Shown in pieces: positions 59,616 through 64,000 of a stretch of DNA of 64,000 nucleotides. The translations under genes were made by a program, and so were the position numbers. Positions within the stretch are counted from its first letter, which is position 1, and each line of letters begins with the position of its first letter. Source of the stretch: Escherichia coli (GTDB lineage Bacteria; Pseudomonadota; Gammaproteobacteria; Enterobacterales; Enterobacteriaceae); the NCBI RefSeq assembly GCF_030013205.1, contig NZ_CP122648.1; one strand, given 5' to 3'. The notes beneath the pieces were generated by a model. It made no database searches. It was not told the origin of the DNA and was given only the letters and a program-made list of their open reading frames with translations.

Positions 59616-60170
59616 ATTGCACAGGCCGTAAGAACCAACCACGACTGAATGAAACTGGACTGGCGCCAGCAAGCCTGTTCAGACTGGGGCTGAACTTTTC
59701 CGGACTCTGAAAGATTACCAATACTCATCGTCCATCCGCTTGCTTTAGGCTGACAGGTTCATAATCAACGCAAACCAGAGCTGTACAGGCTTGGGCGCGG
59801 CTTTCAAACCAGTCGTGATCACGGCAATCAATTTTGAACTCTGCTTAACGGACATTTCTGTATAACCCTTACGGCAACGAAAAACGCGAAGTTAAAATTT
59901 TAGAAACCCAAAAACGTGACATGACTAAGTTTAGATTTCAGGGGGGAGATCAAAAAATTTCGCTCTGTGCCAGAGCGGACATTCACGGAGCTGGTTCATT
60001 ACCAATGAGGTTGGGCTTTTGAGGATAAATCAATGATCAGACGCCAACGTAAATCAAAAGCAACCCTGGAACGGAATTGCTAATCCAGTTTCTGACCATC
60101 GATTTTTCTAAAAAGTGTGCGTTTGCTACTACTTAGGTAGGTGCAGCTTTCTTAATCACCGGCAGCCACG

Positions 60171-60502
60171 TTATACAGGCCAGTTGATGGATCGATTGTT
60201 ATCAATGATATCTTTATGAGTCGGTGTCTCACCCAGCTTACCGAAGCTGGCATAAAGTGAAGGCAGACGGGCCCGTCCTTCTCCCTTTTTCGCCAGAGGG
60301 AAAGCGCGAAGCATGGTGGCAGCCTCCCAGTCACAACAATAGGATGGTGTGCACGGCTGCTGACGCCATGATTCAGCGATAGAGCCGGAAAATACGGGGT
60401 CAAAGCCGGTATCATTAACCAGAGTCATCGTGACCTGTACTGCGGCTGGATGATCTCCTGCTACTGCAACTGCTAGGCGACCGCGGCTCCCTTCAGGTAG
60501 TC
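60171..60502 (-). pseudogene. 3' remnant of a gene truncated by IS911 (possibly yjhV-like)
   Basis: Open frame runs into the IS911 right end at about 60503; only about 110 C-terminal codons lie outside the IS. Confidence 0.3.
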
Positions 60503-60510
60503 TGTTGTGG

Positions 60511-61417
<907 letters not shown>

Positions 61418-62638
61418 TGTAGATTCAATTGGTCAACGCAACAGTTATGTGAAAACATGGGGTTGCGGAGGTTTTTTGAATGAGACGAACATTTACAGCA
61501 GAGGAAAAAGCCTCTGTTTTTGAACTATGGAAGAACGGAACAGGCTTCAGTGAAATAGCGAATATCCTGGGTTCAAAACCCGGAACGATCTTCACTATGT
61601 TAAGGGATACTGGCGGCATAAAACCCCATGAGCATAAGCGGGCTGTAGCTCACCTGACACTGTCTGAGCGCGAGGAGATACGAGCTGGTTTGTCAGCCAA
61701 AATGAGCATTCGTGCGATAGCTACTGCGCTGAATCGCAGTCCTTCGACGATCTCACGTGAAGTTCAGCGTAATCGGGGCAGACGCTATTACAAAGCTGTT
61801 GATGCTAATAACCGAGCCAACAGAATGGCGAAAAGGCCAAAACCGTGCTTACTGGATCAAAATTTACCATTGCGAAAGCTTGTTCTGGAAAAGCTGGAGA
61901 TGAAATGGTCTCCAGAGCAAATATCAGGATGGTTAAGGCGAACAAAACCACGTCAAAAAACGCTGCGAATATCACCTGAGACAATTTATAAAACGCTGTA
62001 CTTTCGTAGCCGTGAAGCGCTACACCACCTGAATATACAGCATCTGCGACGGTCGCATAGCCTTCGCCATGGCAGGCGTCATACCCGCAAAGGCGAAAGA
62101 GGTACGATTAACATAGTGAACGGAACACCAATTCACGAACGTTCCCGAAATATCGATAACAGACGCTCTCTGGGGCATTGGGAGGGCGATTTAGTCTCAG
62201 GTACAAAAAACTCTCATATAGCCACACTTGTAGACCGAAAATCACGTTATACGATCATCCTTAGACTCAGGGGCAAAGATTCTGTCTCAGTAAATCAGGC
62301 TCTTACCGACAAATTCCTGAGTTTACCGTCAGAACTCAGAAAATCACTGACATGGGACAGAGGAATGGAACTGGCCAGACATCTAGAATTTACTGTCAGC
62401 ACCGGCGTTAAAGTTTACTTCTGCGATCCTCAGAGTCCTTGGCAGCGGGGAACAAATGAGAACACAAATGGGCTAATTCGGCAGTACTTTCCTAAAAAGA
62501 CATGTCTTGCCCAATATACTCAACATGAACTAGATCTGGTTGCTGCTCAGCTAAACAACAGACCGAGAAAGACACTGAAGTTCAAAACACCGAAAGAGAT
62601 AATTGAAAGGGGTGTTGCATTGACAGATTGAATCTACA
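61418..62638 (+). mobile_element. IS30, complete 1221-bp copy with 2-bp target duplication
   Basis: Ends TGTAGATTCAATTGGTCAACGCAACAG ... CTGTTGCATTGACAGATTGAATCTACA; GT at 61416-61417 and 62639-62640. Confidence 0.9.
61480..62631 (+). CDS. insI: IS30 transposase
   Basis: 383-aa ORF, canonical IS30 transposase. Confidence 0.92.
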
Positions 62639-62904
62639 GTAGCCTTTTTTAATATTTCATTCTCCATTTCAATGCGTTGTAGCTTTTTCCTCAGCTTACG
62701 TATTTCGATTTGTTCTGGTGTTATCGGAGAGGCTTTTGGTGTTTTGCCCTGACGCTCATCACGCAGTTGTTTGACCCATCTTGTCATTGTGGAAAGGCCA
62801 ACATCCATAGCTTTGGCGGCATCTGCCACCGTGTATGTCTGGTCAACAACCAGTTGAGCGGATTCGCGTTTAAACTCTGCGCTAAAATTTCTTTTTTTCA
62901 TTGG
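62551..62904 (-). pseudogene. insN: IS911 orfA (InsN), 3' end replaced by read-through into IS30
   Basis: [21 protein letters not shown]...EILKKAT then sequence diverges at the IS30 junction (62638/62639). Confidence 0.7.
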
Positions 62905-63001
62905 AGCACCTGTGTTGTTCTGAGGTGAGCATATCACCTCTGTTCAGGTGGCCAAATTCAGTAAACCACTTCACCACTTCAGAGCAGACGAGACAAAAAG
63001 A

Positions 63002-63574
63002 ATGGTTGACGCATCAGCTCAACCCCATATAGTTGTAACACTTGAGCCAAACCCTTGGGCCGCTTTTTACTTTGATATTAACATTGCTAATACAGGGAAC
63101 GCACCTGCCTATAATGTTGAGGTTGTGTTTGATCCTCCACTAGTAAATGCGGAGCATAGAGAAAAAAGTGAGATTCCGTTTAGTAAGGTAAGCGTGTTAA
63201 AAAATGGGCAATCACTTACCAGCAATCTCTGTAAGTATGAACAAATCAAAGATCAAATTTATAATATTAATATAAGCTGGGCAAGCAAACCTAAATCAAA
63301 CGATAGAGAAACAAATGAATATGTGTATGACATGGCGACATTTGAAGGAATAAGTTATCTAGGAGCGAGAAGCCCATTGACGCAAATTGCAGAACAAATT
63401 AAAGGTATAAGAGAGGATTGGAAACCTATTGCACAAGGAGCTAAAAAAGTAAAAGCAGACGTATATACTTCAAGCGATAGAAACGAAGAACGCACGTATC
63501 TGCAAGAGCAACACGATTTGGCAATAAAAAGGAGAGATGAGAAAAGAGAAAAAAGATTAGAGTCTGGTGAATAA
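63002..63574 (+). CDS. Hypothetical protein, AT-rich; possibly 5'-truncated by IS911
   Basis: About 190-aa ORF; the frame stays open back into the IS911 end (ORF-track start 62948), so the N-terminus is uncertain; no recognisable family. Confidence 0.35.
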   Translation: MVDASAQPHIVVTLEPNPWAAFYFDINIANTGNAPAYNVEVVFDPPLVNAEHREKSEIPFSKVSVLKNGQSLTSNLCKYEQIKDQIYNINISWASKPKSNDRETNEYVYDMATFEGISYLGARSPLTQIAEQIKGIREDWKPIAQGAKKVKADVYTSSDRNEERTYLQEQHDLAIKRRDEKREKRLESGE

Positions 63575-63622: not shown

Positions 63623-64000
63623 TTAATCACTTATTTTTGACAACAGATAATTACTGAACGCACTGCAAGTGACTAACATAAATTTAGCTTCAGCTAAGGT
63701 AGGATTTACATCTTCTTCTGTTAGCGCATGACGTATTCCACCCTGATCACTTGTATAACCATAGAGCTGACTAAAAGCGCCTTTCATTGCAGAGTGTATA
63801 TATCCTTTTTCCTCTATAGCTTTAAGACAAGCCCCCAAGGTTCCTTTATCATTGCCCGTGATTTTCCTGCATAAAGATTCAATTGCAGAGATAGACTCTT
63901 TAATCGAGTTTCTGTAGTCTGGCTGCTCTCTATCCGTCATTAGTTGTAACGCCCTTTCGAAATGGCTACGCGATGAATCAGTGCCATTATCAACTGCGTT
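63623..64000 (-). CDS. Hypothetical protein, 3' portion; ORF appears to continue past the window edge
   Basis: The frame is open from 64000 down to the stop at 63623; the Met at 63940 may be internal; no recognisable family. Confidence 0.35.
   Translation of the reverse strand, partial: NAVDNGTDSSRSHFERALQLMTDREQPDYRNSIKESISAIESLCRKITGNDKGTLGACLKAIEEKGYIHSAMKGAFSQLYGYTSDQGGIRHALTEEDVNPTLAEAKFMLVTCSAFSNYLLSKISD

Follow-up and report, generated by a model that had tools for sequence, protein, structure and literature searches.

Positions 60171-60502 of the window (the whole 64,000-nucleotide stretch of Escherichia coli DNA analyzed here) can be identified with high confidence as the pseudogene yjhV, which holds the last 109 codons (44%) of a Klebsiella-type gene for an NAD(P)H oxidoreductase of the Rossmann family PF03807. 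It is an ordinary, already catalogued gene remnant. In the genome of E. coli K-12 MG1655, pseudogene yjhV (b4286) is annotated at 4509804-4510133, between IS911B-1 and fecE, which corresponds to 60171-60500 of the window, and the K-12 locus (L006) is 99.1% identical across fecD-fecE-yjhV-IS911. The present analysis adds to this entry a family, the exact codon at which the gene is cut, a Klebsiella-type source allele, and the finding that E. coli lacks the 5′ half of the gene. The remnant and its surroundings are composed of the following features.

58848-59615, plus strand: fecE, a 255-aa ORF, annotated as fecE in identical E. coli records.
59616-59960, no strand assigned: spacer toward fec that does not resemble the oxidoreductase loci of Klebsiella or Raoultella.
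59961-60170, minus strand: 3′ flank of the ancestral oxidoreductase gene, delimited by the alignment to a Klebsiella locus (L098); it contains the hairpin CGCTCTGGCACAGAGCG followed by a T-run.
60171-60502, minus strand: yjhV pseudogene, codons 140-248 plus the stop codon and two bases of codon 139 from a 248-codon PF03807 gene.
60503-61417, minus strand: right portion of IS911 (orfB side), 99.1% identical to K-12 IS911B-1; the inverted repeat was read in the sequence.
61418-62638, plus strand: IS30 inserted inside IS911, with a transposase ORF at 61480-62631 (383 aa); 99.4% identical to K-12 IS30D.
62639-62973, minus strand: left portion of IS911 (orfA side), matching K-12 IS911B, with the left tip at 62973.
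62974-63574, plus strand: unrelated left flank of IS911, annotated elsewhere as DUF8453 or hypothetical protein; tblastn with the full-length oxidoreductase finds nothing here.

The minus-strand ORF at 60171-60584 encodes 137 aa according to the ORF list of the window, contains the peptide FDPVFSGSIAESWRQQPC, and stays open for 82 bases inside IS911. The yjhV remnant within it comprises a stop codon (60171-60173), 109 complete codons (60174-60500), and two bases of a split codon (60501-60502). Protein homology in this ORF is confined to 60174-60502 and begins at the base abutting the right tip of IS911 (60503). When a full-length relative was used in tblastn searches, its residues 140-248 were aligned to 60500-60174 of the window, and DNA alignments to Raoultella and Klebsiella ended at 60502. 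Beyond 60502 the ORF consists of IS sequence that happens to be open in this frame. The fragment matched near-identical copies with E = 2e-68 and independent full-length relatives with 51-81% identity. The initial annotation had assigned a 3′ fragment to 60171-60502 and quoted a peptide from it, and both the coordinates and the peptide agree with the ORF list and the sequence. Its view that the frame is open up to the IS911 right end, with only the 3′ part remaining, was borne out by the 109 codons and stop that abut 60503. It was also right that a gene, and not merely intergenic DNA, is broken at IS911, as homology starts at the IS tip.

All full-length relatives are 248 aa in length, with PF03807 (F420_oxidored) matched at residues 2-93 at 67-68 bits (cut-off 21.6 bits). 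PF03446 was also matched by full-length 248-aa relatives, including the Klebsiella protein P0162. Homologs of this length number in the thousands and are usually labeled "NADPH-dependent F420 reductase" or "NAD(P)-binding domain-containing protein". Searches with the 109 residues of the remnant returned mainly truncated E. coli copies, together with an N-terminally extended Raoultella protein carrying NAD-binding domains. The N-terminal Rossmann domain with its GxGxxG motif is found in the full-length orthologs and is missing from the fragment; the link to PF03807 is provided by orthology to the C-terminal part of its members (P0162 residues 140-248). It had been stated that no family could be confidently assigned to the fragment. 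This statement has to be corrected, as the family is the PF03807 Rossmann oxidoreductases, with 108 of 109 residues shared with P0162. The fragment is thus what remains of a PF03807 member and not a functional member.

The substrate is a separate matter. The reconstructed full-length protein scored 28.2 bits against the NpdG equivalog TIGR01915, for which the cut-off is 149.8, and the database name "F420 reductase" is for this reason not to be read as a substrate. F420 production is not known from enterobacteria, so the name probably fails to give the real substrate. The full-length protein was first rebuilt from a frameshift-ridden assembly of Raoultella terrigena and was later replaced by clean Klebsiella proteins. 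In R. terrigena GCA_901420665.1 (L003, 8001-8750), multiple frameshifts were observed in the oxidoreductase gene and its neighbors, including a split LysR gene. Sequencing indel errors, and not true gene decay, are the probable cause, because the oxidoreductase gene is intact in another R. terrigena genome (L015).

The 90% cluster around the closest full-length protein includes proteins from Klebsiella grimontii, K. oxytoca, other Klebsiella, and R. terrigena. The full-length ortholog sought by protein comparison proved to be P0162 ("MULTISPECIES: Klebsiella", 248 aa), residues 140-248 of which are identical to the window fragment at 108 of 109 positions; the sole amino acid difference, E-to-K at 60215, is specific to the window. 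The P0162 locus (L098, NCBI assembly GCA_024432445.1) is 95.6% identical to window positions 60502-59961. Within the remnant itself there are two differences in 332 bases (99.4% DNA identity). The alignment starts exactly at the IS911 tip and ends at a terminator-like hairpin (59977-59961). The Klebsiella-type DNA kept in E. coli thus amounts to 542 bp, that is, 44% of the gene and its 3′ untranslated region. Alignments of the window to L098, L015, and L014 end at 59961, 59987, and 60076, respectively.

Beyond this point, the spacer leads to fecE, the last gene of the ferric-citrate transport operon, which is convergent with the yjhV remnant. No exact match to a 29-mer from the spacer was detected among species-representative genomes, and the entire segment 59616-60502 is 100% identical to that of strain K_EC180. 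In E. coli O55:H7 DEC5A, the match is limited to the first 171 bp past the fecE stop codon (59616-59786) and carries no annotated feature; some lineages appear to have kept a smaller relic of the region downstream of fecE.

The intact gene is adjoined by a divergently transcribed HxlR regulator gene in Raoultella, Pantoea, K. grimontii, and other Klebsiella. No fec genes were found within 6-8 kb of intact orthologs in the isolate genomes examined. A functional tie between an FNO/STEAP-like reductase and ferric-citrate uptake was considered and rejected, because the intact orthologs in these isolates do not lie beside fec. In several Klebsiella genomes that differ in upstream context (loci L096-L105), a block composed of a biotin-lipoyl protein, HxlR, and the oxidoreductase is followed by a common HTH_31/Phage_GPA/AbiJ_NTD4/NERD island, which lies between about 400 bp and 6 kb past the gene. 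The Klebsiella oxidoreductase locus may thus lie at, or be part of, a mobile-element boundary.

The part lost in E. coli comprises 139 codons, including the GxGxxG Rossmann (dinucleotide-binding) domain, together with the promoter and the HxlR gene. Since the cofactor-binding domain is gone, the remnant would be unable to bind NAD(P)H or to work as an oxidoreductase. No match to residues 1-139 was detected by tblastn across the whole 64-kb window, which also lacks HxlR. Three probes, each consisting of the 5′ half and the HxlR gene (of Raoultella, K. grimontii type, and Klebsiella P0162 type), gave no match in 5,426 complete E. coli genomes. It had been proposed that the 5′ portion was removed or displaced by the IS, and a check was suggested of whether the missing part lies past the IS911 left end. 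It was looked for there and is absent, the DNA past 62973 carrying an unrelated plus-strand ORF followed, in related genomes, by an AbiJ-NTD4 (abortive-infection-like) gene. Because the 5′ half is absent past the left end of IS911, from the window, and from all 5,426 genomes, it is removed and not displaced, and only the first half of that proposal stands. The unrelated plus-strand ORF (62948-63574) starts inside the IS911 repeat and is elsewhere named a DUF8453-domain or hypothetical protein by PGAP; it may itself be 5′-truncated or fused. A Pfam scan of this ORF and of the minus-strand ORF at 63623-63940 gave no match.

The right inverted repeat of IS911 starts at 60503 (tgttgtggtcaactaaaactggcc). 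K-12 IS911B-1 (99% identical) ends at the same base, and IS911-like copies in unrelated contexts (H75, H76) align from exactly 60503. Both terminal inverted repeats begin with TG, the right one being tgttgtggtcaac... from 60503 and the left one TGAAGTGGTTTACTGAATTTGGCC, ending at 62973. A simple insertion would also have left a 3-bp target-site duplication and a contiguous target, and these are not seen: the flanking triplets are gtc (60500-60502) versus cca (62974-62976). In K-12 the IS911 flanks are ggc and gac (both in K-12 orientation). The right junction is constant; the left flank is yjhE/yjhD in K-12 versus the DUF8453/AbiJ region in the window. The lack of a duplication and the unrelated, strain-variable left flank point to deletion or recombination after IS911 insertion. 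The IS30 copy, on its part, is flanked by a clean 2-bp "gt" duplication.

Some other details of the IS911 ends were observed. At the left tip, ccacttca (plus strand) is directly doubled by a second ccacttca in the flank (62966-62981), so that the 8-bp terminus is repeated; the second copy could be what is left of a further IS911-type end, or the element could have inserted next to a repeat-like target. The right repeat begins with TGTT (60503-60506), versus TGAA at the left tip of the same copy, and most IS911/ISEc52 copies align to the right repeat from its fifth base onward only. The TGTT start may affect the usability of the right end for transposition.

The yjhV remnant was present in 2,736 of 5,426 complete E. 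coli genomes, and 2,627 of these covered the full length of a 240-bp probe centered on the junction. No form other than the truncated one, with this IS junction, has been seen in E. coli. Matches of E. coli and Klebsiella plasmids to the intact-gene probe begin at the same base as the breakpoint in the window. It was claimed earlier that IS911 insertion "here" inactivated the gene. The break does fall at the IS tip; the word "here" is too literal for a junction that lacks a target-site duplication, has a variable left flank, and is repeated in about 2,627 genomes. The truncation is old and most likely predates the arrival of this DNA in E. coli, because there is no target-site duplication, the left flank is variable, the junction is fixed, and the nearest intact allele is found in Klebsiella.

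Based on these data, the following history can be proposed. In a Klebsiella-like donor, the oxidoreductase gene would have received an IS911 insertion, after which its 5′ side would have been taken away by recombination between IS copies or by an IS-associated deletion. The remnant could then have traveled as a passenger of the fec operon into the leuX island of E. coli and onto plasmids. The IS911 copy, which abuts the second base of codon 139, was later struck by IS30. The breakpoint, the missing 5′ half, and the fixed junction are observed facts, and the donor and the order of events are inferred, since an intermediate (IS911 within an otherwise complete gene, with its duplication) was found in no genome.

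A different order of events, in which an E. coli ancestor had an intact gene beside fecE, received the IS911 insertion there, and lost the 5′ half within E. coli by an IS911-adjacent deletion, is unlikely. Such an arrangement is present in one contig (L010), where HxlR, an intact 248-aa gene, fecE, and fecD are joined and 2,206 bp are 99.4% identical to the window. However, L010 is a 2.9-kb short-read contig of mosaic composition: its 5′ part is of the K. grimontii type (99.9% identical to L008, 96.7% to L014) and its 3′ part is of the E. coli type. Nine of its ten differences from the window remnant are concentrated in 115 bases (60384-60498) adjoining the IS junction. Its sister contigs, L008 and L009, break off at window position 60160, the very point at which the two types part after sharing a 31-mer. 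An E. coli-type fec-yjhV fragment also occurs in the record of a K. oxytoca isolate, which makes a chimera or secondary recombinant plausible, as both sequence types may co-occur in one sample. L010 was not relied on as the ancestral arrangement, because a secondary recombinant or a de Bruijn-graph chimera would account for its mix of alleles and for the points at which L008 and L009 end; whether it is a genuine recombinant or a chimera made in assembly, the verdict on yjhV stands. Insertion within E. coli is further opposed by the complete E. coli genomes, none of the 5,426 holding the 5′ half, and by the closest intact allele, which occurs in Klebsiella without fec nearby. Truncation in a Klebsiella-like donor is therefore preferred.

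Two other readings concern the frame itself. The probability that 60171-60502 is a chance ORF without a homolog is negligible. Pfam and NCBIfam scans of the fragment alone did return nothing significant (the best Pfam hit was DRL_cat with E = 0.085, and NCBIfam gave none), and a DRL_cat identity was dropped as sub-threshold. But the fragment is the C-terminus of P0162 at all but one residue, it shares 81% identity with Pantoea proteins and about 60% with thousands of 248-aa proteins, and the Pfam model spans the N-terminal 94 residues only, which is exactly the part that was lost and the reason why the fragment alone finds no family. It is also very unlikely, if less far-fetched than a chance ORF, that the remnant is a working small gene (the 85-aa PGAP ORF or a 137-aa IS911-yjhV fusion) served by IS-derived signals and retained for function. 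An 85-aa CDS is annotated in the remnant by PGAP (WP_000177060.1), an RpoD-binding site is listed between insM and yjhV by gSELEX (PMC3946193), a YjhV-AceF cross-link is given in one preprint, and conservation of the remnant exceeds 99% across about 2,700 genomes. This conservation reflects recent spread and not selection, because the adjacent fec DNA and spacer are equally conserved. In addition, any product would be without the cofactor-binding domain, frameshifted variants exist (P0014, P0017, P0021, P0034), and a promoter scan around the junction found sites no more numerous than in shuffled sequence. Given the PGAP ORF, the RpoD site, and the AceF cross-link, some expression of the remnant is conceivable. 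That an 85-aa internal-start or 137-aa fusion product is made from IS-derived signals and acts as an isolated FNO-like C-terminal subdomain binding host proteins is highly doubtful, a shade more so than retention for function in general; if true, it would give an additional function to a widely carried fec island.

Reading yjhV as a dead fragment brings together several names. In the literature it appears in list mentions only: the RpoD site upstream of it (PMC3946193), the AceF cross-link of the preprint, and its description as a "virulence-associated" co-passenger of fec in mastitis isolates (PMC7750360). The 85-aa ORF in the remnant is labeled by PGAP as "hypothetical protein" or "NAD(P)-binding domain-containing protein". 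These two labels, "3-hydroxyisobutyrate dehydrogenase, partial", and the "virulence-associated gene" (PMC7750360) all denote one dead fragment. Its family and source are now firmly assigned: it derives from a PF03807 oxidoreductase of Klebsiella type, linked to HxlR and cut at codon 139. Its importance is small. The 542-bp Klebsiella-like piece marks the path that the fec module took into the leuX island of E. coli and onto plasmids.

The closest known counterpart is K-12 yjhV itself (b4286, in the KpLE2 phage-like element), which has the same extent (330 nt, 109 codons and stop), the same neighbors (fecE and IS911B-1), and 99% DNA identity. The window differs from it by the E-to-K change, by the content of the nested elements (IS911::IS30 with an IS600 fragment in K-12; IS30 only in the window, with 120 bp of IS911 kept instead), and by the DNA left of IS911, where yjhE and yjhD lie in K-12. 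Judging by the nested elements, the strain behind the window is not K-12. Similarity to the Klebsiella P0162 gene runs 210 bp downstream of the coding sequence at the DNA level; the E. coli copy has neither residues 1-139 nor the promoter nor the HxlR gene, and it lies beside fec, whereas the Klebsiella gene lies beside the Phage_GPA-bearing island. At the level of fold, solved relatives of the full-length protein include 4huj, the STEAP3 oxidoreductase domain, and archaeal FNO, matched over residues 2-190 (E values 1.5e-9 to 2e-3). The full-length relative shares the PF03807 fold-level family with FNO/NpdG and the STEAP domain (PDB 1jax, 5n2i, 2vns; also 4huj), and it differs from them by an additional C-terminal segment of about 60 aa containing CTPSYCCDW.
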